Part shown: piece after piece, positions 4,531-63,659 of the stretch
Numbering within the stretch: position 1 is the first letter of the stretch
Layout of the letters: each line of letters begins with the position of its first letter
IMG/VR virus record: IMGVR_UViG_2529292828_000009
Origin: a virus
Taxonomy: Duplodnaviria; Heunggongvirae; Uroviricota; Caudoviricetes
DNA length: 64,000 nt
Strand: one strand, 5' to 3'
Notes under the pieces: model-generated
The model's database searches: none
What the model saw: only the letters and a program-made list of their open reading frames with translations
What the model was told of the DNA's origin: nothing
Translations under genes and position numbers: made by a program

Positions 4531-6013
4531 GGGTCAGCATGTCGATAAGTTCTGCATCATCCATCTGCGGATATAATGAAGCGGCTTTGTTCATGGCGGC
4601 TTCCGGGCCATCTTTCAGCACAGAAAAAATGACGGGTTTCAGCAGGGGATCAACCGAACGCTGCCAGTCTTCCGGTGAAACGCCCATCCGGTCGATATCA
4701 TCCTCCTGCGGGATATCATCAGCGGATAATGCGGCTTCTTTCTGCGGACCGTTATCCATGACGACCGGTTGAGCAGTAAACACGGCTTCATCACCGACCG
4801 GCTGTGGAATATGGAGTTTTTCCTGTATCCATGAGACCGGAATACGCATTCCCGCCGCCAGTTTCGGAATGGCGTCAGACAGTGCCGTAATATCACCCGC
4901 TTCACTGGTATCAAATACAATGCCCGGCAGGCGGTTAATATCAATGGTGCTGCCACTGTTCAGTGCCAGCAGGGGATAAATCAGATCACGGTTAATACTG
5001 CGGGCAAGCTGGCCCACATCCGCGTTACGGATTTCCCGGCGAACCTCATCATGCACTTCACCCAGCGACCGCGCGCCTTTATCGCCAGCCTCTGTGGTCA
5101 GGGTGCCGCCCAGAATAGCTTTTGAAATCGCTTTTTCTGCCCAGCCAATCATCGCCATAAAAGGGTCTGACTGACCATCTGCGGCGCTCTGAAAATCCAG
5201 CGTCATCCCCATCGGAATAATGCCACCGGCACGTCGCCCGATATCCATCACGGCCTGCATCAGCGTGGCTTTCTCGCGGTTCGTTGAGCCGGTCGGATAT
5301 TTACCGACGCGCATGGGGAGTCCGTAAATTTCCAGGAACTCTGCAAAATCACGCACGGAATAGTTTTTAAAAATAAAAGGCCAGATAAGCGTGCGCACAA
5401 GACCATTGGTGCCGACATACCCGGTGCGGGATTTGGCCCGGTGCATAAACCAGCCGAACGGTTGCAGCTCCAGCCCGTGATAAGACGCATCACGCAGGCG
5501 TAATTCGTTCAGATTGTCGGGGTTCGCGCAGAACAGCGCCGGATCGCGATGATGCAGCGCCACCGGCACGCGCATTTTCCCAAGCCACCCCCATTCAATC
5601 TCCTGCATGGAATAGCCCTTGAGAATGGCATCACCGGCATCAAACAGGGCATCTTCAAACCACGCCGCATCATGCAGATATTCATTCAGTATGTCAGCGT
5701 CTTTTTTCTCCTGTGTGCTGGCATCACGTGCCGGAGCGATGCGCCATTCCAGCGCCTGAATGGCAAGGCGGCGTTTGCTCAGTTCGGAAAAAAGGTGGGT
5801 GTCCTTTTCTTCCATATCAAAGGCCAGGTCAGCCTGTGCTGTCAGATCACCGCGTTCGGCATCACGCAGCATCTGCGCGGCCCGGTTCGGCGTCACACCA
5901 CTGGAAGGATGCTCCTGCGTACGCTTCATGACCATTGCCAGCTCATCGCTGCGGGTCTGCATTTCATCGTCAAAATCAAACGGCTGCCCGGAAATATCCA
6001 GAATACGGCCCAT
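4475..6013 (-). CDS. H: Mu portal protein H (gp29)
   Basis: 512 aa; directly downstream of terminase large subunit. Confidence 0.8.
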   Translation of the reverse strand: MGRILDISGQPFDFDDEMQTRSDELAMVMKRTQEHPSSGVTPNRAAQMLRDAERGDLTAQADLAFDMEEKDTHLFSELSKRRLAIQALEWRIAPARDASTQEKKDADILNEYLHDAAWFEDALFDAGDAILKGYSMQEIEWGWLGKMRVPVALHHRDPALFCANPDNLNELRLRDASYHGLELQPFGWFMHRAKSRTGYVGTNGLVRTLIWPFIFKNYSVRDFAEFLEIYGLPMRVGKYPTGSTNREKATLMQAVMDIGRRAGGIIPMGMTLDFQSAADGQSDPFMAMIGWAEKAISKAILGGTLTTEAGDKGARSLGEVHDEVRREIRNADVGQLARSINRDLIYPLLALNSGSTIDINRLPGIVFDTSEAGDITALSDAIPKLAAGMRIPVSWIQEKLHIPQPVGDEAVFTAQPVVMDNGPQKEAALSADDIPQEDDIDRMGVSPEDWQRSVDPLLKPVIFSVLKDGPEAAMNKAASLYPQMDDAELIDMLTRAIFVADIWGRLDAAADH

Positions 6014-42897: not shown

Positions 42898-44169
42898 CTA
42901 GATAGTTTTTTTTGCAAAGTCGTAGGGGGTTATATATTCCTGAGTGTTAGCATCAAGATAATCGGCCCACCACTGAACCATTAAACGACGCTCATCCAAA
43001 TGCTCTGAAGTATGAATATAAGCAGCCCTAACGCTATTACGCTCAGAGTGGCTTAGCTGACGTTCTATCGCGTCATCACTCCACAACCCTGATTCGCCCA
43101 AAGCACCGCGCGCCATAGTTCTGAATCCATGCCCGCAAACTTCGGTTTTTGTGTCATACCCCATTGTGCGCAAAGCACTGTTAACCGTGTTTTCACTCAT
43201 AACTTTAGTTGCGTCATGATCTCCCGGAAACAGTAGCTCTTTATCACCACTAATCTGCTTAAGCTGCTCTAACAAAATCATCGCCTGCCGACTAAGCGGA
43301 ACGATATGCTCCTCTTTCATCTTCATCCCACGGTACGAGTAACGGACACCTTTAATTTCTTCTCGTTTTGCCGGTATACGCCAAAGAGATTTATCGAAGT
43401 CGAATTCATCCCAGCGAGCGAAACGCAACTCACTGGAACGCACAAAAGTTAGTAAGGAAAGCTCGACTGCAATCCGTGTCATTAAACGGCCACGATATGC
43501 AGCAAGACGTGCAAGAAACTCAGGGAAACGGTTAGAGGGTAAAGCTGGATAGTGTCGTGCTTTGGTTGTCGATAAAGCACCAGCCATATCACTGGCTGGG
43601 TTTGAGTCGATATAATCGTTCTGTACGGCATAACGCATAATAGCTGTAACACGCTGCTGAAGACGCTGCGCGACGTCATGCTTACCACTGGCATCAACTT
43701 TTTTAATCGGGGCTAACAGGTGGCTTGTTTTAAGCTGGCGGATATCGGACGATCCGATATGAGGGAAGATATAAAGCTCAAGATAGCGAAGAACGCGCGC
43801 TCTATGGTCTTCACTCCAGCGCTTGTTACTGGCATGCCATTCACGAGCGATCGTTTCGAAAGTATATGCCCCCGATTTCTCGGCCTGAGCCGCTTTCTGC
43901 TCGGCTTTTGGATCAATACCCTGCACTAATAATCTTTTAGCTTCATCACGTTTTGCCCTTGCCTGGGCAAGTGTCACAGTAGGCCAAACGCCAAAAGCGA
44001 GGCGATCCTCTTTTTTGTCTGAAGGGCGTCTGTATTTCATACGCCAGTATTTAGATCCCTTGGCCGAAACCTCAAGATACAAACCGCCACCATCGGCCAT
44101 TTTGTAGGTTTTGTCTTTTGGCTTTGCGGTCTCGACCAGTCTGGCGTTGAGCTTCATTTGGGGGCACAT
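42898..44169 (-). CDS. P4-family tyrosine integrase of the satellite island
   Basis: Homologous to the integrase at 62135-63385 (shared AVMRYAVQN, FVRSSELRFARW, VCGHGFR, RAAYIH); probable start MKLNARL at 44157. Confidence 0.85.
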   Translation of the reverse strand: MCPQMKLNARLVETAKPKDKTYKMADGGGLYLEVSAKGSKYWRMKYRRPSDKKEDRLAFGVWPTVTLAQARAKRDEAKRLLVQGIDPKAEQKAAQAEKSGAYTFETIAREWHASNKRWSEDHRARVLRYLELYIFPHIGSSDIRQLKTSHLLAPIKKVDASGKHDVAQRLQQRVTAIMRYAVQNDYIDSNPASDMAGALSTTKARHYPALPSNRFPEFLARLAAYRGRLMTRIAVELSLLTFVRSSELRFARWDEFDFDKSLWRIPAKREEIKGVRYSYRGMKMKEEHIVPLSRQAMILLEQLKQISGDKELLFPGDHDATKVMSENTVNSALRTMGYDTKTEVCGHGFRTMARGALGESGLWSDDAIERQLSHSERNSVRAAYIHTSEHLDERRLMVQWWADYLDANTQEYITPYDFAKKTI

Positions 44170-44320
44170 TTCTAATCGAAGTCAAGATGCCCCTAATTAT
44201 GCCCCCAATGGCATCCGGATTTCAACGGACAATCTCGGACGACTCCGGACATAAGAATCACTGTACTCATTGAATTATAAGGAACAATTGGACTTTCTCG
44301 GATGATCTTGGAAGTGCTAA

Positions 44321-44344
44321 TGGTGCCGAAGGCCGGACTCGAAC
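44321..44344. repeat. 24-bp direct repeat of the leuX 3-prime end (att junction between the two islands)
   Basis: TGGTGCCGAAGGCCGGACTCGAAC identical to 63575-63598. Confidence 0.85.
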
Positions 44345-44691
44345 ATCGCAACTATCCTTATGATCTTTAGTAATTAAAGCAATCTACATTGTCGATGATA
44401 CCATCATTGATACCATCAGACCCGATTGATGATAATCGAACAGTAATAAAATATGACTAAACAATTTATGCTTCAACATAAGATTGAATGCTTTGATCTA
44501 CCATTTTAATGCAGTGGAAAAATTTTTAACACAATACTTAAGAAAAATAATTTCATATAAAAACTACATTTCATTTCATATAGTTAACACACCAAAAACA
44601 ACTGTATATAAACCCAGTAAAAAATGGTAGAATCACTATTGTGTTCAATTGTTGAACATTTATAATACATTTGTCGGATAGGGGGGTGTTT

Positions 44692-45279
44692 ATGCAAAGG
44701 AACACATACAACAAAGTAGGTCTATACATCCTATCTTTAGCTATGCTTTTTGTTTTTATTATTATCCTGACTGCCAAAATCCCCTTTTGCTTCACTTCGG
44801 ATTGTAGCTTCATAGGTTTGAAGAGACTTGTATTAACAAATATTGTTCCTATTGTTTGCTTTGTATTTTTTCTATTTAGTATTTATTTTTATAATAGATT
44901 AAAAAACATAACAAAATACAATGGACAAGATAGCGTTAAAATAACATCATGTCAAAGCGAAAGCTATGAAAGTTTAACATTCTTAGCAACATACATTGTA
45001 CCTTTTATGGGGTTTAGTTTTGAAGACATGCAAAAGAATATAGCATATCTTTTGCTTGTAGTAGTAATAGGCATTATTTTTATTAAAACAGACAAGTATT
45101 ATGCGAATCCAACTTTAGCTCTGTTTGGCTTTAAACTATACAGGGTAAATATACTACACCCAGGAAGTGGAGAAACAAAAAATCTGATAGCTATTTCAAA
45201 TGATGTATTAAAAGTGGACGATAATGTTTATTATAGTTTCTTTGATGAATTTGTTTTTATAGCAAGGAAAAAAATATGA
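44692..45279 (+). CDS. Four-TM membrane protein, KwaA-like (Kiwa defence system component A)
   Basis: Four hydrophobic helices; ATG at 44692 after a G-rich RBS; 4-nt overlap with the downstream gene; call is by architecture only. Confidence 0.45.
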   Translation: MQRNTYNKVGLYILSLAMLFVFIIILTAKIPFCFTSDCSFIGLKRLVLTNIVPIVCFVFFLFSIYFYNRLKNITKYNGQDSVKITSCQSESYESLTFLATYIVPFMGFSFEDMQKNIAYLLLVVVIGIIFIKTDKYYANPTLALFGFKLYRVNILHPGSGETKNLIAISNDVLKVDDNVYYSFFDEFVFIARKKI

Positions 45280-46223
45280 CTACTCAGCAGTTAAAAGAAA
45301 AAATTTCAAAAATAATTGATAACTTTAGCGGAATCAGGGTTGTATTTACTACTACTGCTAATGAACTAAAGCTTTCCAGAATTGAAGGGAGTGCATTAAA
45401 TAGCATAGCTGAAGGGTTTATTGACAAAATCAAAGAAGACATTATAAATAATGAAGATCTCACCTCACCATTGCTGTCCAATTTTGATGATAGAAAAAAT
45501 GCCTTGTTTAAATTTGATTACGAACAATATCCTGAAGAATTTAACAAAATCACTCAGGCCATCGCTATCCCTCCTAACTCACAAGATTATTATAACCCTT
45601 TAAATAAATTCACAGATGTGAAAGGAATTATAATTTTAATAAGTGGAGATAACAAATGCCTGGCTCTTTATAAAAACAAAACTAACCTTGCAGTATTGAG
45701 AAATAGCAGAAAAATGTTTAATTTAGTCCCTGACCCTGATGGATACTTGAAACAACTCCCTAATGAGATATTACGGTTAGATTTCAATTATGATCTATTA
45801 TCAATTGGTGAGGATTTTTACATTAAAAATCACAAGACTCTTGAAACTCAAATGAAATTTCATCAAGTGATTGAAGCCCAGGCAGTTATTGCTTTAAATT
45901 CTTTACGGGATTCACTACTAATTGAAGACATATCAGGTTTAGAAAAGAGTTCGAGAGAAATTTCATTCGCTAGAAAGTTGGCAAAAATCTCCAAACATTC
46001 TCCTGTTTTGGGGAAAATAGATACTAAAACAATTATCGATTATGTATCCCAACATAAATATTTATCTGCAATACTTCAGATTAATGAAGCAGGAAATAAG
46101 TTATTAATTAAAACCAAGACATCACAGAAGCATTTCATTAAACTCATGAGCGATGATTATTTACAATCAGATCTAACTAAAATAATATACATGAGCATAG
46201 CAAAAGACAGATTAGATGAATAG
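45276..46223 (+). CDS. KwaB-like soluble protein (DUF4868-like, Kiwa component B)
   Basis: 315 aa, coupled to the upstream 4-TM protein; call by size and architecture. Confidence 0.45.
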   Translation: MTTQQLKEKISKIIDNFSGIRVVFTTTANELKLSRIEGSALNSIAEGFIDKIKEDIINNEDLTSPLLSNFDDRKNALFKFDYEQYPEEFNKITQAIAIPPNSQDYYNPLNKFTDVKGIIILISGDNKCLALYKNKTNLAVLRNSRKMFNLVPDPDGYLKQLPNEILRLDFNYDLLSIGEDFYIKNHKTLETQMKFHQVIEAQAVIALNSLRDSLLIEDISGLEKSSREISFARKLAKISKHSPVLGKIDTKTIIDYVSQHKYLSAILQINEAGNKLLIKTKTSQKHFIKLMSDDYLQSDLTKIIYMSIAKDRLDE

Positions 46224-46237
46224 AATTTTAAGTAGAA

Positions 46238-46278
46238 GTGACAAATATTATAAACCATTCTTGAAATATATTTGTCAC
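46238..46278. terminator. Bidirectional hairpin between convergent genes
   Basis: 11-bp perfect inverted repeat GTGACAAATAT (46238-46248) / ATATTTGTCAC (46268-46278). Confidence 0.5.
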
Positions 46279-46287
46279 TATTACTAA

Positions 46288-46959
46288 TCATTCGCGTGCT
46301 TGATTATTTATGCTGGATGTTCTAATTGTTGCCGAATGCCAATACCCACCACTATATGTTCTTGCTATAGTAATAAATCCAGTACAGGTAATTACTGTCA
46401 TTAAAATCAGGAAAATATAATAGAAATTAAGCGGAGCTTTCAAATCAAAAGGAGGTAACGAATACACCAGCAACCCTATCCATACAATAGTTATAAATAA
46501 ACTAATAATTTGGTTTATCTTAGATACTGATATTGGAGATGGACCAGTAAGTAAATGAACCGAAAACTCTTTTATTCCTTTCGGTTTTGCACGAGATAAC
46601 ACCACTTTATATAGTGGACCATTAATATTATCTTCTAACATATCGACATGTTTTTCCCAGTTTCCCTGCCAATATTTACTACCACGGTTAACACAGAGCC
46701 AACCGAATGAAAATACAATTCCCAGTGAACACAGTAATACGGATAAATCTGTCTTAGCTGTAGAAGAGGAAGTCTGTATAGCAACAAAACCAGCTAAAGT
46801 TGCCGCTATAAAAGTCCAGAAATAAGTTGCTCTTTTCCAGTAATGGTCTATCTCATATTTCCGTATATCTAAAGCCTGTAGCAGAGCATTCTTATTACAG
46901 TCTCTATCATTAAGAAAACGGCTACGATATTCCTCATCTGAAAATGGAGTAATTGGCAT
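46288..46959 (-). CDS. Orphan multi-TM membrane protein with a SLATT-like N-terminal arrangement
   Basis: Charged helix, then TM pair (YFWTFIAATLAGFVAI ... LSVLLCSLGIVFSFGWLCV), then two further C-terminal TM helices; no match recognised. Confidence 0.5.
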   Translation of the reverse strand: MPITPFSDEEYRSRFLNDRDCNKNALLQALDIRKYEIDHYWKRATYFWTFIAATLAGFVAIQTSSSTAKTDLSVLLCSLGIVFSFGWLCVNRGSKYWQGNWEKHVDMLEDNINGPLYKVVLSRAKPKGIKEFSVHLLTGPSPISVSKINQIISLFITIVWIGLLVYSLPPFDLKAPLNFYYIFLILMTVITCTGFITIARTYSGGYWHSATIRTSSINNQARE

Positions 46960-46985
46960 ATTGATTTACCTCTATTTATAATAGT

Positions 46986-47013
46986 AAAAGAGGGGTCCCC
47001 CCCCCTCTTTTTT
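46986..47013 (-). terminator. Rho-independent terminator at the 3-prime end of the RM gene
   Basis: AAAAGAGGGG (46986-46995) / CCCCTCTTTT (47002-47011) stem with flanking T-run. Confidence 0.55.
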
Positions 47014-50000
47014 AGTTATTTTTAAACAAAACCTTTACTATTCCATCTATATCCCTTAGGAAACTCTCGAAAGAGGATCTATTAGCCTTAGCTTCATGAG
47101 CCTTTTTTGAAAGTTCAGACAGCTCACGATGCTTTTTATTACCTTCATCATAAAGAGGAACATTAATTGGAGGTCTGATTTTAAAAGTTCTGCTATCACT
47201 GGACTTCAGAATGTACTCCCCAGTGATTGATGAGTTAAAAATAGCACAAATGTAATGTGCCTCATCCAGGGTAATAAATTTACCATCTTGCCTCTGAGAT
47301 ATACTCACAGCATGGTTCTGAAATAAAGGTCTCTTTTTGTCACCCCATGGAGTATCCATTTGACTCACAACTGCTGCTGCCCATTTAGTGTTATCACGAA
47401 AACAAACAAAATGATCACCATAAGTATATTCACCTACACGAGCCAATGCGTAAAATGCAGTAATATTGCTTTTACCTATGATTTTGTCATTGTATCGAGT
47501 CTGCGACTCTAATAACTGTTTATTATTAATGAAATAGTCAGCCAACATAGGGCTTTCTTTAACAAGCTCATCTACAGGTATCGGTTTACGACTCAATTCT
47601 CTATATGGAAAGGGTACGAAGAACTCAACATCTTTTACCCCAAAAGGTTCAATATTTGTTCCTTTAATCAGGGGGTATATATGCTTGGTTTCAGCAAAAA
47701 TCATTTGTTTTGCCACTTTATACTTAGACTTGCCACCCTGATAATTTTCAAAAATTGCAGTGTTGTTAGCTTTTTTTGTCTTAAATTTCCATAAGAATAA
47801 TTCTTGAGGGAAAAATTCAATCCCTTCCCTGCCATGATATTCGCAATATCCACTGATATTTCTGTAATCATTGAGTTTTTCGGAATCTGAAGCATATGTA
47901 AAGGCTGTATTGCTTACACTAACAGTGCCAGCGATCTCTTTACGGATAGAGAACTCATGCGAAATAGCATTAAAATGCGTATGCTGTGAGTAGCTATCAA
48001 GGCTTCTTCCGGTTTTATTTTTCGTCAAAAATGTTAAAGGTATCCCTTTTAAATAATCGACATTTTTTGACGAGAATAAATAAGTCGCAAACTTGATTGT
48101 AACAGGCTTGAATGGATGCCCGGATTCACTCCAGTCGTATACCTCTTGGAGATATAGTTTTTGGTTATCCCCAAAGTTAAACTCTCGAAATCCTTCATAT
48201 GTTTGCTGGAAAAGGATATTTTGAGGCATAAGGAATGCCAATATGCCATCTTTCTCTAACCAGTTTTCAGCAGATACATTAGAAATTAATGCACAAATGT
48301 TAAGGTTTATACCACCAGTAAGCCTATCACCAGAAAATAGGCTCCTACTTAAGCATAAGCCTTTAATTCGTTCTCGATATCCTGCAGGTAAATTTTTCCA
48401 GTCAATCCATGGTGGATTACCAACAACCATATTAAATTTGCCTAAGTTTGCAGTGGTCAAAAAATTAGTGACTATTCTAGCCCAAATTCCATTCCAGTCT
48501 CTTTCTTCTAGTTCGACAAACTTATCTGATAAAGTTTTTAATTTTTCATAAATGCTAGGAGAACTACTAATATCCCCACTTACTTCGATTAATTTTGCAA
48601 AAACACTATCACGATCTCGAAGTTTAATATATCGTTCAATATCAACAATTGCTTTTGAGAACTTATGAGAATCACTCAAAGCTTGAGTAGGCATCTCGAT
48701 ATAAATCGAGCCTTGCAAAGTATTTATTTCGTATCGCAAACAGTCAATGCCATCAATTATGACCTTTTCTGGAACATACGATGCGTCACCAAGATAAATT
48801 GGAATTTCAACTTCGCTACCTTCATCAAGCAAATGTGATATATTGATGAAATAGTTGATTCTTGCAGTTAAAGCTGCAAGAGGATTTAAATCAATACCTT
48901 TGACAGATGTTATGACATCTTTTAATTTAGCTTTGCTATCAGTATGAGTACGACTCAGAACTTTACCTATTAATGTAATTATAAAGGTTCCGCTACCACA
49001 ACATGGATCAATTGCAGTCCAGTTGTTCTTATTTACAACATGCTCTTCAGCAGAGGATATCAAATGCTCTGCAAGCCATTCAGGAGTGTAAAATTCTCCA
49101 AGAGAATGTCTTACTTTATCAGGAATAATGTTCATGTATAGATCTTTGAAAAGATCGTATACTTTTTCACCCTCTTTGAAAAGGTTTCCTTCCTCATATT
49201 CACTTAGTAATGAAAATATATTTTTAATACTAATGAATATATCATCTCCCCATTGTTCCTTAGTACAATACCAAGAGAAAAAGTCACCTTCCAGCAGGTT
49301 CAAAATCCCATACTTCCTGAAAATAGCACCTTCTTCTAATGTGTATAAATAGTTTCTCATTGATTCAGAGTTACTATTGATCATATCTGAAAAATTATAA
49401 TCATTTTCAAATACAAGTCCAGATAATGTTTTATAAGCTATTATTTTTACAATAATCGCATATGCAGTCTGGAGAGCATAAAGAACTTTATATTCATCAT
49501 CGTTAGTAAGTAACCTATGACCAGCAATATCTTCAAGTGATAACTTTCGTTCTAAAATTGCTGTTTGCTGAGATTTATCATCATGTGCAAGTCTAAATAG
49601 CTCCTTCCATTCGTTGAAGAGCATTTGAGAGCGGCCCGTCATGTTATTTTCAAGAGCCGAAAGAAGATTACCTATTAATTGAGTTGTTAAAGATGGAGAT
49701 CCATAGCAAAAATCATCAACGATGTTTTTTGGATGCAATGCCTTCTTATTCAAAAGAACTAAAAGCCCGCAAATTTTTTTAATTGCATTCTTATCAAGCG
49801 GTTGCAACTTTGATGTTAAAATGCCATCAGTATCACGAATAAGGTAATTAATACCGTCTGTTAGCACTCCAACATAGCGTTGATTCCCTTCTAACTTTAA
49901 AGAATCAAGGTAAGCCTGGATTTGAAGCACAGCCTTATTAATATCATTATCTTTTTTTAATTTCTCTCTATGCTTAAACTCTATTACTAAAGATCCAATA

Positions 50001-50290
50001 CGACTATCGATACGCCCCTTACTGTTGCTTCTGCCGGTCGTGTTGTATTTAATACCATCAATAAAAATTTCTTTTTCGGGACGGTAATCAATACCAATGA
50101 AATCTTTAATGAAAGGAATAAAAGCAAGGTCGAAACCAGAAACAACTTCTGCTTCATTTTTGGCTAAATATGAGGACTCATTAATTTTTTTAGATATAAT
50201 ATCAGCAGCTAAAAGAAAATCTGAGTCAGTAACAATCTTTTCTTGAGCTTTGAACTTAATTTTTTTTTGAATTTCTTCTAACACAGCCAT
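47012..50290 (-). CDS. Type IIG restriction-modification enzyme, MmeI-like (PD-ExK nuclease + N6-adenine methyltransferase + target recognition)
   Basis: N-terminal IDSRIGSLVIEFK (D...ExK), SAM motif DPCCGSGTF, catalytic VGNPPW; 1092 aa in one polypeptide. Confidence 0.65.
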   Translation of the reverse strand: MAVLEEIQKKIKFKAQEKIVTDSDFLLAADIISKKINESSYLAKNEAEVVSGFDLAFIPFIKDFIGIDYRPEKEIFIDGIKYNTTGRSNSKGRIDSRIGSLVIEFKHREKLKKDNDINKAVLQIQAYLDSLKLEGNQRYVGVLTDGINYLIRDTDGILTSKLQPLDKNAIKKICGLLVLLNKKALHPKNIVDDFCYGSPSLTTQLIGNLLSALENNMTGRSQMLFNEWKELFRLAHDDKSQQTAILERKLSLEDIAGHRLLTNDDEYKVLYALQTAYAIIVKIIAYKTLSGLVFENDYNFSDMINSNSESMRNYLYTLEEGAIFRKYGILNLLEGDFFSWYCTKEQWGDDIFISIKNIFSLLSEYEEGNLFKEGEKVYDLFKDLYMNIIPDKVRHSLGEFYTPEWLAEHLISSAEEHVVNKNNWTAIDPCCGSGTFIITLIGKVLSRTHTDSKAKLKDVITSVKGIDLNPLAALTARINYFINISHLLDEGSEVEIPIYLGDASYVPEKVIIDGIDCLRYEINTLQGSIYIEMPTQALSDSHKFSKAIVDIERYIKLRDRDSVFAKLIEVSGDISSSPSIYEKLKTLSDKFVELEERDWNGIWARIVTNFLTTANLGKFNMVVGNPPWIDWKNLPAGYRERIKGLCLSRSLFSGDRLTGGINLNICALISNVSAENWLEKDGILAFLMPQNILFQQTYEGFREFNFGDNQKLYLQEVYDWSESGHPFKPVTIKFATYLFSSKNVDYLKGIPLTFLTKNKTGRSLDSYSQHTHFNAISHEFSIRKEIAGTVSVSNTAFTYASDSEKLNDYRNISGYCEYHGREGIEFFPQELFLWKFKTKKANNTAIFENYQGGKSKYKVAKQMIFAETKHIYPLIKGTNIEPFGVKDVEFFVPFPYRELSRKPIPVDELVKESPMLADYFINNKQLLESQTRYNDKIIGKSNITAFYALARVGEYTYGDHFVCFRDNTKWAAAVVSQMDTPWGDKKRPLFQNHAVSISQRQDGKFITLDEAHYICAIFNSSITGEYILKSSDSRTFKIRPPINVPLYDEGNKKHRELSELSKKAHEAKANRSSFESFLRDIDGIVKVLFKNN

Positions 50291-52430: not shown

Positions 52431-53621
<1,191 letters not shown>

Positions 53622-55853: not shown

Positions 55854-57728
55854 TTAATTATTCAAAAGCTTATTAATTCTTTCCAAATTTTTTTCATGGT
55901 GTTGCAACCATTTGTCTGCACCATAATCACCATTTTCATAAGCGATCTGAGTTATTCTCTTTAATTGCATTACTTTCTCTCGGACAGATTGCAGTCTAAT
56001 TCTATCTACTGAGTTAATGTCCGGTGTTTCATTATCACATTCAATAAGATGATTAATTTTTGCACAAGGCTTGATTAAATAGTTATGTACACAGTAACCA
56101 AATTCAGTTAAGTGTATTGCACCTTGATTAAGGTTATCAAAATCAATTGTCAGTTCATTTGTGGGTATTGACTCCCTTTGACAGTAATTACTCCTATTCA
56201 ATTTAATAGCTTTGATTTTATCTAACATATCTTCTTCCGACACATGGTTATAAACTCTGTTCTGATTCGCATTGATACGACCAGACCATTTAGCTATATC
56301 CAGTTCAGACATTTCACCATAATGGGCTATTGTGTTTAAAAGGTGCCGTGGCTGGTGTGAGCGAATAAGTAGTGGTTTACCTTCATCATCATAATATCCA
56401 TATCGGGAAAATATATTTTTATAATTCATCTCATAGCTTTTTTTTCTTTGTATGTCACTGAAAAAGAAACTTTTAGTAGGCTTATAAAATGTGAAAATTG
56501 AAGTCATTCTTGATAAAGAAAATTGATCAGTATTGAGCAAGCATAAAGCATTACTAAATTTTATGGATTTTTCTTTATCATACCATGGAAAGTCTCTGCT
56601 AAAATTAGAACTAATAATTTCCCACAAATCACTCAATGAATAGTTGTAATCATTGTGGTTTAAGAAGCTTTTCCCACCATCCAAACTCGTTCTTTTAATT
56701 TTTAAAACACATGATTTATGATCAAATAAATGATATCCCAGTGCATGGCAAACTTGTACAACGGTCAATTTAGCTTTTTCATCAACTGTTGGGCAAAGCT
56801 CATGTCGGTAAAATTTATCCGGGTACTTTTCGCACCAGTGAGCAAGTGCTCTTGCATTTTGTGATAAGGAAAGTAATCTTCTAATCGCTTTCTTTGCAAC
56901 TGGTATCATAACCCGTGGAATCCATTTGATATTAGGGCCATACCCTTTTACCGAATAAAATCTCAAACCATATCTTTCGATACCCTTGCCATCTATTTGT
57001 GTAATCTCACAATCAGCAGGTAAGGCTAAAATTTCAGAAATTCTGCTCGGACAACAAAGTAGAAGTGCAAATACTGAACTGGTGAACTTATCCCTTGGAC
57101 TCAGTAACTCATCATTTTGAGAAAAAATATCAGCAATAGCGAGCAATGCTTCTTCATCTGGTAACTTATCGCTTCGGTGATAATCCTCAATCTCAGGAAG
57201 ATAATTGTTTTTGACTTTCTGTTTTACATGGTTTTTCCATGAGATATATCCTGACTTCACAAGATTATGTTCACACAGAAACTTTGATATTTTTTCAAGC
57301 TGTATTCCACATTTAGCCAAAACGTTACCTTCAAAATATTTACTCCCGATCTGCATTGCCTCATCGAAAACAACGGCTGTAACATTATAAATGAGACCAG
57401 TGTTCTGAACCTGCAAAAGGGCCTGTTCGAGACATCGCAAGGCCATCATAATAACCCCATAATTTTTCAATGGTTTCAATGTGTGTTGATATCTGATATA
57501 TGCTTTCGCAAAATTGATATAATCTTCGTGCATTGCATCAATGGAATCAAAGATTTTATTTCCAATCCCTATTTTTCTAAATGTGACATATCCTTTCCAG
57601 GCATACTGCTCCCAATCCTGAGTTTGGGTTAGTCCGGACAGTTGATAGCGACAAAATTTTATGAACTCATTATAATTTTCTTCTACAAGAATATGTTTTT
57701 TTGATTTGAACAAAATAATATTATTCAT
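55854..57728 (-). CDS. Tyrosine recombinase-like protein, third of three (624 aa)
   Basis: C-terminal SHQPRHLLNT ... NQNRVYNHV pattern; ATGA overlap with upstream gene. Confidence 0.5.
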   Translation of the reverse strand: MNNIILFKSKKHILVEENYNEFIKFCRYQLSGLTQTQDWEQYAWKGYVTFRKIGIGNKIFDSIDAMHEDYINFAKAYIRYQHTLKPLKNYGVIMMALRCLEQALLQVQNTGLIYNVTAVVFDEAMQIGSKYFEGNVLAKCGIQLEKISKFLCEHNLVKSGYISWKNHVKQKVKNNYLPEIEDYHRSDKLPDEEALLAIADIFSQNDELLSPRDKFTSSVFALLLCCPSRISEILALPADCEITQIDGKGIERYGLRFYSVKGYGPNIKWIPRVMIPVAKKAIRRLLSLSQNARALAHWCEKYPDKFYRHELCPTVDEKAKLTVVQVCHALGYHLFDHKSCVLKIKRTSLDGGKSFLNHNDYNYSLSDLWEIISSNFSRDFPWYDKEKSIKFSNALCLLNTDQFSLSRMTSIFTFYKPTKSFFFSDIQRKKSYEMNYKNIFSRYGYYDDEGKPLLIRSHQPRHLLNTIAHYGEMSELDIAKWSGRINANQNRVYNHVSEEDMLDKIKAIKLNRSNYCQRESIPTNELTIDFDNLNQGAIHLTEFGYCVHNYLIKPCAKINHLIECDNETPDINSVDRIRLQSVREKVMQLKRITQIAYENGDYGADKWLQHHEKNLERINKLLNN

Positions 57729-59029
57729 AGTTGATTCACCTCACTGCGATCAATCGGAATAAAAAACATACATTGATTGCAAGGAAATCCTGAATTCTGA
57801 CTCTGGCATCTACTTGAAGAAAAAAATTTGAAATGACTACTCTTTTTCGATTTGATTCCGTTCATAAAAATATCAGCGACAAATGACAATTGTTCTGAAA
57901 CAGCGGAATCAATCCTTTCAACACTGTCAGCATGATTTTTAATATAAATCCCCGCACTTGAAGTAGATGAATGATCCAATAATTCAGCTATAGTATTAAC
58001 ATTATGCCCATTCTTAGCCAGCATAGTTGCTATTGTATAACGAAGCCTACGAGGAGTAATATTTAGTATCGAACCGGTACGGTTGGATATTACATTCCCA
58101 TTATTAACAATACTTTTCAATGCTACATTAGCAATTGTAGGCTTCGCATATAATTTATTATATTCCAGAAGAATTGAACCTGTTATGGATAAATCTGAGA
58201 GTTTTTCCTCATTTAAGAAAATAGGAACTTCTCGTTTAGAATAATCATCAAGAGTTTTTCCAAGAGCTTGTTCAACAAGTTTCACTGATTGATTAGCTTG
58301 CAATTGAACAATTGATGCAACCTCTGATATTATTGCAAGTTCTCGATATCGTAGTTCTTTACCCCGTTGTTTTACTCGTGGCACTGAAATTACATATTCT
58401 ACTTTGCCATTATCTAAGTTCTTTTGAAGAAGGTCTTTATATTTCAACATAACTAACTGCTGAGGTCTTCTACCTGTAAGACTGATCAATAGTGATATTG
58501 CATAATGTGGCAGTGACAGTTCACCTTTTCTATATGCATGATTCATAGCCTTAATCAAAGAAGTATGTTCTTCTTTATTTAATGGTCCCTCTGTTGGATC
58601 ATCTTGAAGCACAGACTGACCAGATTTTTTTATTTTTAGGTCCAAATGCTTTAACAGTTCTACCGCACTTTCATCTATTCCCGGATATCCTAACTCAAAC
58701 CATTTAATCAAAAATGGTCGTAAAACGCGAAATGATGCTGGGGCTTTTGATAATTTCTTATTTTGATATTCAATTAGAACCTTATCATCAATATGAGTAG
58801 GAGATAGTTTACGGATAAGACTCTCCATATTTCTAACAATATTTTTCACATACAAATAGCTGTTGCTATTAAAATAATATTGTACTGTATATACAAACCC
58901 ACAAACCAAATTTTCGTTCATAGCATATATTAAGTTTGTAAGATTGATTCCGTTATTTTCAATCGAACTGACGACTTTATGTTCATGCAAAGACATTTTA
59001 TCAGATTTATTTTTAATTAAATTATTCAT
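57725..59029 (-). CDS. Tyrosine recombinase, second of three
   Basis: LTGRRPQQL ... RRLRYTIATMLAKNGHNVNTIAELLDHSSTSSAGIYIKN; start MNNLIKNK overlapping upstream stop by 8 nt. Confidence 0.6.
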   Translation of the reverse strand: MNNLIKNKSDKMSLHEHKVVSSIENNGINLTNLIYAMNENLVCGFVYTVQYYFNSNSYLYVKNIVRNMESLIRKLSPTHIDDKVLIEYQNKKLSKAPASFRVLRPFLIKWFELGYPGIDESAVELLKHLDLKIKKSGQSVLQDDPTEGPLNKEEHTSLIKAMNHAYRKGELSLPHYAISLLISLTGRRPQQLVMLKYKDLLQKNLDNGKVEYVISVPRVKQRGKELRYRELAIISEVASIVQLQANQSVKLVEQALGKTLDDYSKREVPIFLNEEKLSDLSITGSILLEYNKLYAKPTIANVALKSIVNNGNVISNRTGSILNITPRRLRYTIATMLAKNGHNVNTIAELLDHSSTSSAGIYIKNHADSVERIDSAVSEQLSFVADIFMNGIKSKKSSHFKFFSSSRCQSQNSGFPCNQCMFFIPIDRSEVNQL

Positions 59030-60224
59030 CAAATTCTCCTTTGAATAGTTGCTCTTGTTGTTCAAGTGCAGTTTTTTTCGATAGCTCATAAATATGCCTG
59101 CGATTATAAATCATTGAAGTTTCTGAACCCGGTCGCCATCCCATGAGATAAGAACGGATTTGTTGCTCTTTTTCATCGGATATGTCCTGATTCTTGTCTA
59201 TTGCTTTCGAAAACTCATAATTCCATGTATGTCTGAGTTTGTGACCTGTCAATCCCCCTAGAAGTGAGGAGGATTGACGAACAACACTCACCACTTTGTG
59301 ATATGAAGAAAATGAAATAGGTTGCCCTTGAGTTTTTCCTTCCTTATAAGTAATAAACAGGAAATCATGTTTGTTAGAATTTTTTATGTTTCTTCGATCA
59401 TTCAGAATATAATCTGAAATTTCAAACATGAGCTTTTTATCAGCAATTAATTTCCTCTCACAAGTTTTAACTAAAGGCTGATACACTCGCGGATCTGTTT
59501 TATCATTTGCTCTTCTTCTTATTGCAATTGTCGATTCTGCAAAATCTATATCACCAATTCGCAGATTCAAAAGTTCACCTGCTCTCAGGCCAAAGCAGTG
59601 TAATAGCAGGAATATTAGATTGTTTCTTTTTTGCACTTTTTCTGAAAAAGGATTTAATTTGCTACCCGGTGCAAGAATGCTAAACAAAGAATCCAATTGT
59701 TCATTATTTAAACTTTTTTCTATATCCATATTATATTTATCATTATTTCTCGGTTTCTTTCGTTTTATGTTGTTAATGAAATCTAAAATATATTTGAGAG
59801 TATCCTTCTGTCCTGTATGAGAAAGATGTATTTTGCACAGCCATTCCAGATAGTTAGCTATGGTTGTTATCCGAAAGTACTTAGTTGGTTTTTTGACATT
59901 TGAACTTCTAAAATTATCATTCTCGCCATCTCGAAAATTGAATGAAGTGAATTCGATCAAATCTTCAATTTCATGAGGAGCCAGAAATATCCTTTTCTGA
60001 ATTCTTTCATCAATATTGATCTCTTTCCTCATAAAGAATCGATATAACAATGAAATGCTACCGGCAATAACCTTCATTGTTGATATAGACTCTGACCGAT
60101 TCCTGACCTGTGTTGTTATATACAAGTTAGGATAATACAATGGTTCACCAGTATTTTTATTTACGATATGACAATATCTCTCACCATTTTCGAACATAAA
60201 AGAATCCACACAAATACTACGCAT
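59022..60224 (-). CDS. Tyrosine recombinase, first of three
   Basis: GLRAGELLNLRIGDID ... GHKLRHTWNYEFS ... MIY catalytic-domain pattern. Confidence 0.6.
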   Translation of the reverse strand: MRSICVDSFMFENGERYCHIVNKNTGEPLYYPNLYITTQVRNRSESISTMKVIAGSISLLYRFFMRKEINIDERIQKRIFLAPHEIEDLIEFTSFNFRDGENDNFRSSNVKKPTKYFRITTIANYLEWLCKIHLSHTGQKDTLKYILDFINNIKRKKPRNNDKYNMDIEKSLNNEQLDSLFSILAPGSKLNPFSEKVQKRNNLIFLLLHCFGLRAGELLNLRIGDIDFAESTIAIRRRANDKTDPRVYQPLVKTCERKLIADKKLMFEISDYILNDRRNIKNSNKHDFLFITYKEGKTQGQPISFSSYHKVVSVVRQSSSLLGGLTGHKLRHTWNYEFSKAIDKNQDISDEKEQQIRSYLMGWRPGSETSMIYNRRHIYELSKKTALEQQEQLFKGEFDE

Positions 60225-60519: not shown

Positions 60520-60819
60520 TTAATCCAACAGATATAGAATTATCCGCTTCGCCAAGAGTTTCATTTCATCAGGGCATTTAATTAGCGAGAACCAGGTCTC
60601 GTAAACATATATCTGTTTGGAAGCATTAAGCTCAGAGATCGAGTCTAAAGGTTCTCTCAAATTTCCTACAAGGTACTGACTGAGCCAGTAAATTATTTCT
60701 TTATTAAACTCGTTATTGGGTAAGTCATAAATCACTTCTTGGTCAAAGATCTTGTAAAACCGATCTCCGCATAAATTGCACATATGGTTATCCTCACTCA
60801 CAAATTCTTCGATATTCAT
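60520..60819 (-). CDS. Hypothetical protein
   Basis: 99 aa ORF downstream of the AlpA-like gene. Confidence 0.35.
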   Translation of the reverse strand: MNIEEFVSEDNHMCNLCGDRFYKIFDQEVIYDLPNNEFNKEIIYWLSQYLVGNLREPLDSISELNASKQIYVYETWFSLIKCPDEMKLLAKRIILYLLD

Positions 60820-60840
60820 AAAAATCTCTCCCAGGTTTAA

Positions 60841-61047
60841 TTAAGCAACATTAATTCTGCTTGATTCGATAACTGATTGAATCCACTCGTCAACTTCACT
60901 CTCGACAAAAGCAACGGCACGAACACCGATCTTAACGGGGGCCGGAAACCGACCTTCACTGATCAGACGATAAATCCAGGCCTTGCCGAAACCAGTTCGT
61001 TTCAAGACTTCTGGTAAACGAATTAAGCTTTGATTAGTTGTACTCAT
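60841..61047 (-). CDS. AlpA-family regulator / excisionase-like
   Basis: LIRLPEVLKRTGFGKAWIYRLISEGRFPAPVKIG HTH. Confidence 0.7.
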   Translation of the reverse strand: MSTTNQSLIRLPEVLKRTGFGKAWIYRLISEGRFPAPVKIGVRAVAFVESEVDEWIQSVIESSRINVA

Positions 61048-61213
61048 TTGGCTGTCTCCTCCGCTTCCGTTACGAAGATATTAGCCACACAGATTCGTAT
61101 CTATGAAGGGAATGCTGATAACTGAAAAGTTAGATGAGGGAAGAATGAAAGGAAATTCCGGGGAAGAAAAATATTTACGCCCTCCCCTTGACAATTAACA
61201 TGATGATTTACAA

Positions 61214-62044
61214 CTAGAAAGATCCGAGTTCCGAAATCGGTATGTTGCGGAGATGGCTGTTTTTGCTGATAAAATATTCCAGACTACGGGTTGTTTCGCC
61301 ATTCAATGACTTCTCTGCAACAGGCCTGTCTGTATCTTTAATGTGATCTTCTCCTCTGATCTCATTTGTAAAGTCGGGATACAAGACACGAGACAAGACC
61401 ATATTTGAGATTTTTACTTTTTTAAACTTTGCCCAAATCAATAAATCCATCATTGGGATAATATTGTAATCGACAAGTTTTCTTATTTTTGCAAGTCCAA
61501 TTTTTTCTGTTTTCACTGGCTCAATTTCATATTCTTTTCTAAGATCTGGTAGCATCGTTTGTAAGGCTGTTATAATTTCTTCATCGCTGGACATTCCTAA
61601 ATCAAATGAAACATACATCTTGCTGCTATTTTGGTTAAGAAAAAAGTCCCTCATAGTTTTTGTAATTGGCTTCTTTTTCAACTCTTTTTTGAAATCGCCA
61701 TTTTCTTCAAAAAAATCCATGCTAAACATTATTAACTTGTTCTCTAATTTTTTTATATCACCAAAGCTAACCTGCGCAACATGTCTTTGGCCCTTGCCAA
61801 AATGACCATGATTATTATCTTGTATGCTTAAAATAGGATTACCTTCAAGGATAGACCTTAAATTTTGATTATCATCTTCCCAACCAAAATTTACACTGTC
61901 GAAAATCGCTTCTCTAAAGGCAAGCTCTGTATGCAGTTCTTTGATTGTAAGTGATTTTAACTGCTCATAGTTTTCGAGACTAAACCAGCTTTTTAATTCT
62001 TCATAAGGGCTTACTACTTTCATTAATCCCTCCACTGTATTCAA
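61214..62044 (-). CDS. Hypothetical protein adjacent to the integrase
   Basis: 276 aa ORF, no motif recognised. Confidence 0.4.
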   Translation of the reverse strand: MNTVEGLMKVVSPYEELKSWFSLENYEQLKSLTIKELHTELAFREAIFDSVNFGWEDDNQNLRSILEGNPILSIQDNNHGHFGKGQRHVAQVSFGDIKKLENKLIMFSMDFFEENGDFKKELKKKPITKTMRDFFLNQNSSKMYVSFDLGMSSDEEIITALQTMLPDLRKEYEIEPVKTEKIGLAKIRKLVDYNIIPMMDLLIWAKFKKVKISNMVLSRVLYPDFTNEIRGEDHIKDTDRPVAEKSLNGETTRSLEYFISKNSHLRNIPISELGSF

Positions 62045-62134
62045 AGCTTGAATGAGTTAACACTGCTTATTTGAATTAATTCTCCCTTAACAAGGTTGAT
62101 AAGGGAGAACGATTAATTAACTACTTATTCATAG

Positions 62135-63385
62135 TTAAGTCTTTTTAAAATCAAATGGTGAAACTTGTCGTATTCTAAGGAGGTCAAGGTAATCGGCCCA
62201 CCACTGCAACATAAGCTTTCTCTCATCAAGGTGCTGTGCTTTATGTATGTAGGCAGCACGAACTGAGTTCCGCTCCTGATGGCTCATTTGCCGTTCAACA
62301 GCATCTTTCGACCACAAGCCGGATTCAATCAAGGCACTACAAGCCATAGCCCTGAATCCATGTCCACAGACCTCCACGGTTGTGTCATAGCCCATAGCTC
62401 GCAAAGCTTTATTAACTGTGTTCTCGCTCATAGGTTTGCGGAAATTATGATCGCCAATAAATACGAGTTCATGGTCACCACTGATCTCTTTGATTTTCGT
62501 CAGCACAGCCAATGCCTGACAACTCAAAGGAACAAGATGTGGAGTTCGCATTTTCGAACCACGGTGCGAATGTTTGACCCCTGGCAATGGTTCGCGTTCT
62601 CCAGGGATAGTCCACATCGCATTTTCAAAGTCGATCTCCGACCATCTTGCGAATCTGAGTTCACTGGAACGAATGAAAATGAGCAATGTAAGCTTTACGG
62701 CTAACTTAGTGAGTTTTCTACCCTTGAAGCTATCTATTCGTTCTAAAAGTTCTGAGAATCGTTCGAATGGCAAAGCTGGCCTGTGGACTCTTTTAGCTAC
62801 CGCAATAGCTCCTGCCATCTCTTGAGCAGGGTTGTAATCTATCAGCCCGTTCTGGACAGCATATCGCATCACTGCCGTTGTTCTTTGCTGTAGGCGGGAA
62901 GCAACTTCCAGTCGCCCAGAAGCTTCAACAGCCTTGATAGGGGCAAGAAGATCTCTGGTATTAAGCTCGGATATTTTTCTTTTACCAATAGCAGTAAAGA
63001 GACCATCTTCCATGCTTTTTAGAACTCTCTCGCTATGGGAATCTGACCATTTCCTTTTACAAGCCTTATGCCAGTCCCTGGCAACAGATTCAAAAGTAAG
63101 AGCTTCGCTCTGCTCGATCTTGTCTGCCTTTTTCTTCTCGGAAGGGTCGATACCATCAGATACCAACTTTTTAGCCTCATCTCGTTTCCTGCGAGCTTCA
63201 CCAAGAGAGACCATTGGATAAACACCCAATGCTAAAACTTTCTGTTTGCCATCGAAACGGTATTGGAGTCGCCAGTATTTTGAACCATTGGGGTTGATCA
63301 GCAGGTGCATACCCTGCCCATCTGTGAGTTTGAAAGGTTTGTCGGAGGGCTTGGTAGTCCTAACTTTGATATCGGTGAGAGCCAT
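62135..63385 (-). CDS. P4-family tyrosine integrase adjacent to leuX
   Basis: 416 aa; homologous to the integrase at 42898-44169; lies directly 3-prime of tRNA-Leu. Confidence 0.9.
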   Translation of the reverse strand: MALTDIKVRTTKPSDKPFKLTDGQGMHLLINPNGSKYWRLQYRFDGKQKVLALGVYPMVSLGEARRKRDEAKKLVSDGIDPSEKKKADKIEQSEALTFESVARDWHKACKRKWSDSHSERVLKSMEDGLFTAIGKRKISELNTRDLLAPIKAVEASGRLEVASRLQQRTTAVMRYAVQNGLIDYNPAQEMAGAIAVAKRVHRPALPFERFSELLERIDSFKGRKLTKLAVKLTLLIFIRSSELRFARWSEIDFENAMWTIPGEREPLPGVKHSHRGSKMRTPHLVPLSCQALAVLTKIKEISGDHELVFIGDHNFRKPMSENTVNKALRAMGYDTTVEVCGHGFRAMACSALIESGLWSKDAVERQMSHQERNSVRAAYIHKAQHLDERKLMLQWWADYLDLLRIRQVSPFDFKKT

Positions 63386-63574: not shown

Positions 63575-63659
63575 TGGTGCCGAAGGCCGGACTCGAACCG
63601 GCACGTATTTCTACGGTTGATTTTGAATCAACTGCGTCTACCGATTTCGCCACTTCGGC
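63575..63659 (-). tRNA. leuX: tRNA-Leu (leuX-type)
   Basis: Reverse complement reads GCCGAAGTGGCGAAATCGGTAGACGCAGTTGATTCAAAATCAACCGTAGAAATACGTGCCGGTTCGAGTCCGGCCTTCGGCACCA. Confidence 0.9.

Follow-up and report, generated by a model that had tools for sequence, protein, structure and literature searches.

This analysis concerns positions 60,520 to 62,044 of a 64,000-nucleotide stretch of DNA, IMG/VR record IMGVR_UViG_2529292828_000009, assigned to Caudoviricetes (this whole stretch is referred to below as the window). Two genes of this region, one encoding a protein of the DUF6387 family and the other a protein of 99 amino acids (aa), named p99, belong to the conserved backbone of the integration/excision control module of a 19.3-kb mobilizable island inserted at leuX. 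We further propose, with about an even chance of being correct, that the region serves the integration, excision and regulation of the island, that DUF6387 would regulate the alpA promoter in a manner resembling BisR of the element ICEclc, and that p99 would work together with AlpA; this part of the interpretation draws on analogy with characterized elements.

Two backbone genes beside the leuX integrase

The original prediction described two open reading frames (ORFs) flanking an AlpA-like gene, next to an integrase gene and on the same strand. This gene order was reproduced, with all of the genes on the minus strand: (i) int (62135..63385), encoding a P4-type tyrosine integrase of 416 aa with the Pfam domains Arm-DNA-bind_3, Phage_int_M and Phage_integrase, (ii) the DUF6387 gene (61214..62023; 269 aa), (iii) alpA (60841..61047), encoding an AlpA-family winged-helix protein of 68 aa, and (iv) the gene of the acidic, helical protein p99 (60520..60819). 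The larger ORF is real, but the length of 276 aa first given for its product corresponds to a mechanical reading from a TTG at 62044 to the stop codon. In a near-identical E. coli locus (99.7% DNA identity) the RefSeq start is the ATG at 62023, which yields a protein of 269 aa; this ATG is preceded by a GGAGGG Shine-Dalgarno (SD) sequence and all homologues begin at the same codon.

Both proteins had been considered devoid of recognisable motifs. For the larger one this proved incorrect, since it matches Pfam PF19924 (DUF6387) over its full length (262.8 bits with a cut-off of 28.9, E = 4.7e-78; residues 8-256 on positions 1-258 of the 258-position profile), as do all 21 aligned relatives; it also matches phrog_23422. 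The PF19924 family has no assigned function. The statement held for p99, which found nothing in Pfam, NCBIfam, PADLOC or PHROGs and no sequence match in the PDB. Searches of the PDB with single proteins and with profiles gave nothing credible, the best profile match being a designed gp41 coiled coil. Both ORFs are genes under strong purifying selection (dN/dS of 0.05-0.07 for DUF6387 and 0.08-0.09 for p99). Among 5426 complete E. coli genomes, 144 contain homologues, and numerous other Enterobacterales have them as well. DUF6387 is nearly absent from collections of phages and viruses, where it was found in a single INPHARED record (a bacterial contig) and in 4 of 2.9 million IMG/VR contigs. 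YfjH, encoded between intA and alpA in CP4-57, was examined as a possible relative of DUF6387 and rejected (hhalign probability of 0.3%).

Loci containing DUF6387 relatives were analysed in three sets: 30 loci taken from one genome per species, 80 metagenome loci, and several annotated loci of E. coli and plasmids; synteny in the metagenome set was counted in the 66 loci with enough sequence. DUF6387 has alpA as its direct downstream neighbour, in the same orientation, in 27 of the 30 genome loci and in 64 of the 66 metagenome loci (gap of 107-296 nt), and the DUF6387-alpA pair spans four island lineages, including the ROD21-like islands and ICEKp258.2, in which it is represented by ORF28-ORF27 (PMC10763509). 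The order int, DUF6387, alpA, p99 (where present) and a trio of recombinase genes is found in leuX islands of Escherichia, Citrobacter, Lelliottia, Kosakonia, Buttiauxella, Xenorhabdus and others, as well as in tRNA-Arg(TCT) islands of Pantoea and Erwinia (Int 38% and DUF6387 47% identical). Among the leuX and tRNA-Arg islands that keep this order, DUF6387 identity is as low as 29-48%. The pair is also present in a Serratia island, in enterotoxigenic E. coli (ETEC) H10407 and in plasmid pINF177.2.

A second topology was identified in Brenneria, Samsonia and Pectobacterium loci, ICEKp258.2 and ETEC H10407: here the island ends with DUF6387, which reads inward and is followed by alpA. In ICEKp258.2, which is documented as a whole island, the integrase gene is found at the other end. 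Because DUF6387 is always placed at or near an att end and reads inward, it should lie beside attP in the excised circle in both topologies. Such a position would also suit a recombination cofactor that binds the att arms or the integrase and shapes the intasome, or sets directionality together with AlpA. DUF6387 is invariably the outermost or next-to-outermost gene from the att end, adjoining int in the leuX and tRNA-Arg islands and lying opposite int in the ROD21-like islands, ICEKp258.2 and ETEC H10407; in Pantoea-type islands it looks co-transcribed with int, and AlpA homologues do bind att arms. Nevertheless, we consider a cofactor role unlikely. In loci L024-L029 the adjoining P4-type integrase is 89-93% identical, whereas DUF6387 is just 29-30% identical, and this divergence beside a conserved Int makes a tight fit between the two proteins improbable. 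Moreover, no arm-type repeat that also occurs in the DUF6387 region was found, and the predicted fold of DUF6387 showed no resemblance to IHF, Fis or Xis-type factors.

The original prediction presented the two genes as candidates for an uncharacterised function, on the ground that integrase-proximal positions recurrently take accessory cargo. The general observation is correct: the int/DUF6387 and DUF6387/alpA junctions are hotspots of cargo insertion in relatives. A cytosine methyltransferase gene and a partner gene are inserted between int and DUF6387 in L040 (8644-10795), and DUF6387 and alpA are separated by a pair of ORFs of 298 and 328 aa in L027 (8939-10838), which we take to be sce7725/sce7726-like, and by a gene for a 661-aa protein in L013 (8846-10831). 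A 2.4-kb insert at one of these junctions was also seen in L006 (5608-8001). Both functions are indeed uncharacterised; the step from there to cargo or defence was not upheld. Neighbourhood analysis of homologues, suggested at the time as a check, revealed a constant position, as is typical of backbone genes and not of variable cargo, and presence/absence among related islands gave the same picture, with the position of DUF6387 fixed in all lineages.

It is therefore very improbable that the two genes are accessory cargo providing anti-phage protection or another benefit to the host. Besides the insertions at the junctions next to DUF6387, this explanation can draw on the defence genes of the island (Kiwa and a type IIG restriction-modification enzyme) and on the low GC content that both genes share with the rest of it. 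It is opposed by the lack of any match of DUF6387 or p99 to the PADLOC models, by the fixed place and order of the genes in four divergent lineages that carry different cargo (the cargo of the window island itself being at its other end), by strong purifying selection that tracks the backbone, and by the near absence of DUF6387 from phage and viral collections.

Three DUF6387 loci, or their surroundings, deserve mention for their own features. In Erwinia tracheiphila (L009, 8001-8806) the gene is split by a frameshift, with two tblastn segments overlapping at residues 75-79, and is a probable pseudogene. In E. coli NT1F10 and similar strains (L035, 11259-12832), IS1 and IS3 interrupt DUF6387, while alpA and p99 are kept in a decaying module located by ypjA. 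Just upstream of the terminal DUF6387 gene of Brenneria populi (L021, 7640-7720), apparently at the island boundary, there is a candidate sequence resembling a thiamine pyrophosphate (THI-box) riboswitch.

The p99 gene starts 21 nt past the stop codon of alpA and has its own SD sequence, which places it in the alpA operon. Among the metagenome loci it is present in 56 of 66, always directly after alpA. The gene is dispensable, being absent from the ROD21-like and some other lineages that retain alpA. An exhaustive profile search of 1.84 billion representatives yielded a family of just 59 clusters with lengths of approximately 95-105 aa, aside from fragments and a few longer proteins. In Pantoea, Kosakonia and Erwinia islands (L013, 11444-12067; L011, L012 and L018) the p99 homologue is longer (207-233 aa in total), owing to the fusion of a C-terminal extension of ~100 aa. 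The extended variants (P0197 and P0229) were considered as a possible fusion clue and set aside, the extension containing no Pfam domain. In Citrobacter locus L002, compared with the window (60520-61047), DUF6387 is 98% and AlpA 94% identical, whereas p99 is just 75% identical; this drop indicates a further recombination breakpoint, located between alpA and p99.

A putative switch upstream of alpA

AlpA of the window matches PF05930 (E = 5.7e-20) as well as PHROG excisionase families and, with an isoelectric point (pI) of 9.5, is a small basic protein of the Phage_AlpA kind. Its homologue in ROD21, SEN1998, binds attL and attR and behaves as a directionality factor; deletion or overexpression of SEN1998 shifts ROD21 excision slightly, and the regulation was left unexplained by the authors (PMC8844411). 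By analogy, the window AlpA may be a recombination directionality factor that binds the att sites, a regulator, or both. SEN1999, which adjoins SEN1998, is presumably the DUF6387 gene of ROD21.

In the mechanism that we propose, DUF6387 would bind DNA as a transcription factor and gate the alpA promoter located just downstream of its own gene, either as an activator, as BisR is at PalpA, or as a repressor; through AlpA it would control the timing of excision and hence of transferability. The p99 protein would be made together with AlpA and act by protein-protein contact, modulating AlpA or the recombinases, or aiding establishment in a new host. That it works through protein contacts is probable given that it is acidic, helical and co-translated with AlpA. 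When we say that DUF6387 works like BisR, we mean a likeness of synteny and analogy, with no claim of membership in a BisR family.

The sequences around the DUF6387 gene are compatible with such a switch. Just 3' of the int stop codon there is a stem-loop (62080..62109, minus strand) with 14-nt arms that are 93% complementary (RNA fold of -16.4 kcal/mol, z = -5.1); it is terminator-like and contains no U-run. A hairpin is retained at this place, with other sequence, in L007, L017 and L008, and L024, L025 and L029 have a true T-run terminator. A second hairpin, GGGGAGG ... CTTCCCC (61160..61187, minus strand), read directly from the sequence, is located 27 nt past the DUF6387 stop codon and is probably a weak terminator; Pantoea-type loci and ETEC H10407 have a clear hairpin with an ensuing T-run at this place. 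From these flanking hairpins and terminators we infer that DUF6387 forms its own transcription unit.

Upstream of alpA, two candidate control sequences were distinguished. The first is a TCCCTTCA(T) box (61103..61112, minus strand), 63 nt upstream of the alpA ATG. Of 28 regions upstream of alpA, 19 contain the TCCCTTCA 8-mer; its distance from the start codon is fixed (-63 to -65) in two lineages and is -98 in ROD21-like loci, and the sequence around it is unalignable between lineages. The box probably represents either the -35 region of the alpA promoter or a regulator site within it. The second is an inverted repeat that includes the alpA SD sequence (GGAGGAGA; 61050..61086, minus strand; RNAfold). 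In 13 of 15 lineage representatives RNAfold paired the alpA SD (z of -2 to -4) with arms of differing sequence, which among L003-L030 are, by lineage, CTYCG/CGGAG, CTCCT/AGGAG, CTCATCG/CGAGGAG and CTCCTGT/ACAGGAG. No consensus structure was obtained by RNAalifold from a MAFFT alignment of the region upstream of alpA, because the register of the hairpin shifts between sequences; separate folding does find the pairing. This repeat may form an RNA hairpin in which the SD sequence is occluded, or may be a promoter-proximal DNA palindrome. A further motif, TTCCCTTCAT, showed no enrichment at the att ends.

In E. coli islands the homology to the window repeatedly stops within alpA, 22-30 nt from its 5' end (in a breakpoint sample of 30 rows, 15 matches end at query positions 5618-5626), and beyond this breakpoint alpA, p99 and the recombinase trio stay approximately 97% identical. 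The alpA upstream region of H10407 is unrelated to that of the window. Since homology breaks recur inside the 5' end of alpA, it appears that the alpA promoter and DUF6387 are exchanged as one allele.

Structure prediction, another check suggested at the outset, produced models of both proteins and an informative fold match for neither. The AlphaFold2 model of DUF6387 is all-helical (pLDDT 67), and the part that is both best conserved and most confidently modelled comprises residues ~176-236, with the motifs IIPMMDLLxW, SRVLYP and KDTDRPxAEK. The C-terminal third of the protein is basic (pI 9.3), and this conserved helical region provides a weak but consistent hint of DNA binding. Fold searches with DUF6387 gave weak winged-helix matches at most, none of them informative, Foldseek against BFVD returned nothing, and no recognisable helix-turn-helix (HTH) DNA-binding domain of the type found in Stl, ImmR and CI repressors was detected. 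In the literature, DUF6387 was found named in two papers only, in each as a table entry beside AlpA. The p99 model is a confident helical bundle (pLDDT 90.9; pI 4.5), for which neither profile matches to described families nor structural matches other than generic helical, uninformative ones were obtained.

The size of DUF6387 (~270 aa) and its weak winged-helix matches also recall iteron-type initiators, and the island has no annotated replication gene. Even so, we regard a role in replication or maintenance of the excised circle as highly improbable, the least probable of the explanations weighed here: there are no iterons and no Rep fold (tandem winged helices), and relatives have a separate rep gene. 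OX345049, a 3.7-kb "plasmid" that encodes DUF6387, was discarded as evidence of replication, as it is a linear contig. The explanations of DUF6387 as a recombination cofactor, a replication protein or defence cargo thus rank below a BisR-like role, because of, respectively, the divergence of DUF6387 beside a conserved Int, the lack of iterons and of a Rep fold, and the lack of PADLOC matches together with the backbone behaviour of the gene.

For p99 a separate alternative has to be weighed, i.e. that it is made early from the alpA operon as an establishment or anti-defence factor, or as an antagonist of nucleoid silencing, and does not modulate AlpA. Small acidic proteins of mobile elements often have roles in establishment, anti-defence or anti-silencing, and p99 is small, acidic and confidently predicted to be a helical bundle; it is optional, with several lineages retaining alpA without it, and ROD21-like islands have four to six other small ORFs after alpA, several of them visibly rich in acidic residues. 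The island is also AT-rich (33-34% GC). Yet p99 bears no similarity to known anti-defence proteins in PADLOC, PHROGs, Pfam or the PDB, and we judge this alternative rather improbable.

Several observations weigh against a BisR-like role of DUF6387. (i) The hairpin past its stop codon has a fold of -12.7 kcal/mol and is not significant in the window (z = -0.76). (ii) In Pantoea-type islands int and DUF6387 are approximately 25 nt apart with no hairpin between them, from which it is probable that they form one operon. (iii) The joint exchange of the alpA promoter and DUF6387 could be explained by linkage alone. (iv) DUF6387 as a whole is mildly acidic (pI 5.95). (v) The alpA operon of ICEclc encodes ParA, Shi and BisDC, whereas in the window p99 and the recombinase trio come after alpA; neither a Pfam scan of the genes downstream nor the RefSeq annotation of the near-identical locus revealed a ParA or ParB homologue in the module.

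The island and its neighbourhood

The island borders were defined by the tRNA-Leu(CAA) gene leuX (63575..63659, minus strand; ARAGORN). The last 25 nt of leuX (63575-63599, minus strand) constitute the attL core repeat and were found again at 44321..44345 (minus strand), attR at the far border, with 24 of 25 matches (0 expected by chance); the recurrence of this repeat delimits an island of 19.3 kb. Another gene for a P4-type integrase (423 aa; 58% identity with the first) begins directly past attR, within 42898-44345, which indicates that leuX harbours two islands in tandem. This additional integrase gene is followed by neither DUF6387 nor alpA.

An AT-rich spacer of 295 bp separates p99 from three overlapping recombinase genes (55854..60224, minus strand) encoding proteins of 400, 454 and 624 aa, of which the first two contain a Phage_integrase domain. 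In NCBIfam the trio gave a match to NF041502 and a weak match to GmtY. The 624-aa protein has no Pfam match and is named "DNA-binding protein" in RefSeq; as read from its sequence, it carries a motif, HQPRH...W-S-G-R...VYNH, that resembles the catalytic box of tyrosine recombinases. The trio is found in most relatives, is 28-40% identical in distant islands, and is missing from L041, thus being dispensable.

Further along the island lies a gene for a MobA/VirD2-type relaxase (52431-53621). As this is the sole transfer function, we consider the island mobilizable, unlike the self-transmissible ICEclc. The end opposite int is occupied by cargo (44671-50290), which comprises (i) Kiwa, represented by KwaB and its upstream partner, a 202-aa ORF, (ii) the octameric membrane protein 8xMP, and (iii) a 1092-aa Eco57I-like type IIG methylase-endonuclease (restriction-modification). 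E. coli AHS8C65RI (L001) has a near-identical backbone with other cargo, i.e. a Pycsar-like effector and TIR, caspase-like, KwaB, sce7725, sce7726 and RES proteins.

Comparison with known systems

The module is ordinary and widely distributed, and consists of one Pfam family with no assigned function and one orphan small protein; its interest is modest and lies in a testable hypothesis that places DUF6387 at the control point of medically relevant islands. In several families of excisable islands, distributed over Escherichia, Salmonella, Klebsiella, Pantoea and Erwinia, no feature is more constant than DUF6387 followed by alpA, and the cargo in some of these islands includes virulence, phage-defence or resistance-associated genes.

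The occurrence of tyrosine recombinases in tandem on an island rich in defence genes, together with the weak match of the 400-aa protein to GmtY (E = 4.6e-9), recalls the Gamma-Mobile-Trio (GMT) systems. The identification of the recombinase trio as a GMT system was rejected, since GmtY scored 36 bits against an NCBIfam cut-off of 340; GmtX is a small StbA-like protein, whereas the third protein of the window array is a 624-aa recombinase-like one. The paper on GMT mentions neither AlpA nor an excisionase.

Stl of SaPI and ImmR of ICEBs1 are master repressors placed next to int. DUF6387 resembles them in lying between int and a xis-type gene, sometimes apparently co-transcribed with int, and in being helical, with a length of ~250-280 aa like that of Stl. 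It differs from them in having no HTH Pfam domain, in being co-directional with alpA instead of divergent, and in showing no similarity of sequence or fold. The divergent promoters typical of HTH master repressors are not seen here, all of the genes being co-directional.

The ROD21-like (EARL) islands, e.g. ICEKp258.2 with its ORF28-ORF27, contain the same DUF6387 and AlpA families, arranged and oriented alike, with small ORFs after them, and their AlpA homologue is an experimentally supported att-binding directionality factor. They differ in that the pair lies opposite the integrase, DUF6387 is approximately 30% identical to that of the window, and there is neither a p99 homologue nor a recombinase trio. 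The control of excision in ROD21 and ICEKp258.2 has been studied solely through Int and AlpA, and its regulation was left unexplained. Should DUF6387 prove to act as a switch above AlpA, in the way that BisR does in ICEclc, this regulatory gap would be filled.

The closest functional parallel is offered by ICEclc of Pseudomonas, whose BisR (GenBank CAE92957.1) was compared with DUF6387 by description and synteny. No ICEclc-type module was found among the plasmid AlpA matches inspected, and the ICEclc primers were absent from the viral contigs and plasmids. BisR is a protein of 251 aa that had no Pfam domain in 2020 and is encoded by a single-gene transcript; bisR opens the bisR-to-inrR block, which is located close to attL at the end of the island, and the orf numbers 101284 and 100952 put bisR beside alpA (PMC7423338). 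It is a very potent activator of PalpA, on which AlpA feeds back negatively (PMC7423338). ICEclc is a self-transmissible integrative and conjugative element, whereas the window island is mobilizable. Like bisR, DUF6387 is an att-proximal gene for a protein of ~250-270 aa with no recognised domain when described, probably has its own transcript, and stands beside alpA, the first gene of the following operon; its DNA-binding region is likewise weakly predicted. It lies upstream of alpA as a gene of its own in the same orientation in nearly all of the loci counted above, with a separate transcript suggested by the hairpins. A bolder reading, which we put forward tentatively and hold to be doubtful, is that DUF6387 represents an enterobacterial counterpart of BisR, i.e. 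a hitherto unrecognised family of master regulators at the att-proximal end of many tRNA islands (among them the ROD21/EARL islands, ICEKp258.2 of Klebsiella ST258 and the defence islands at leuX and tRNA-Arg) that would switch on the alpA operon and thereby govern excision and transfer, with p99 as a new partner that would tune AlpA or aid establishment.

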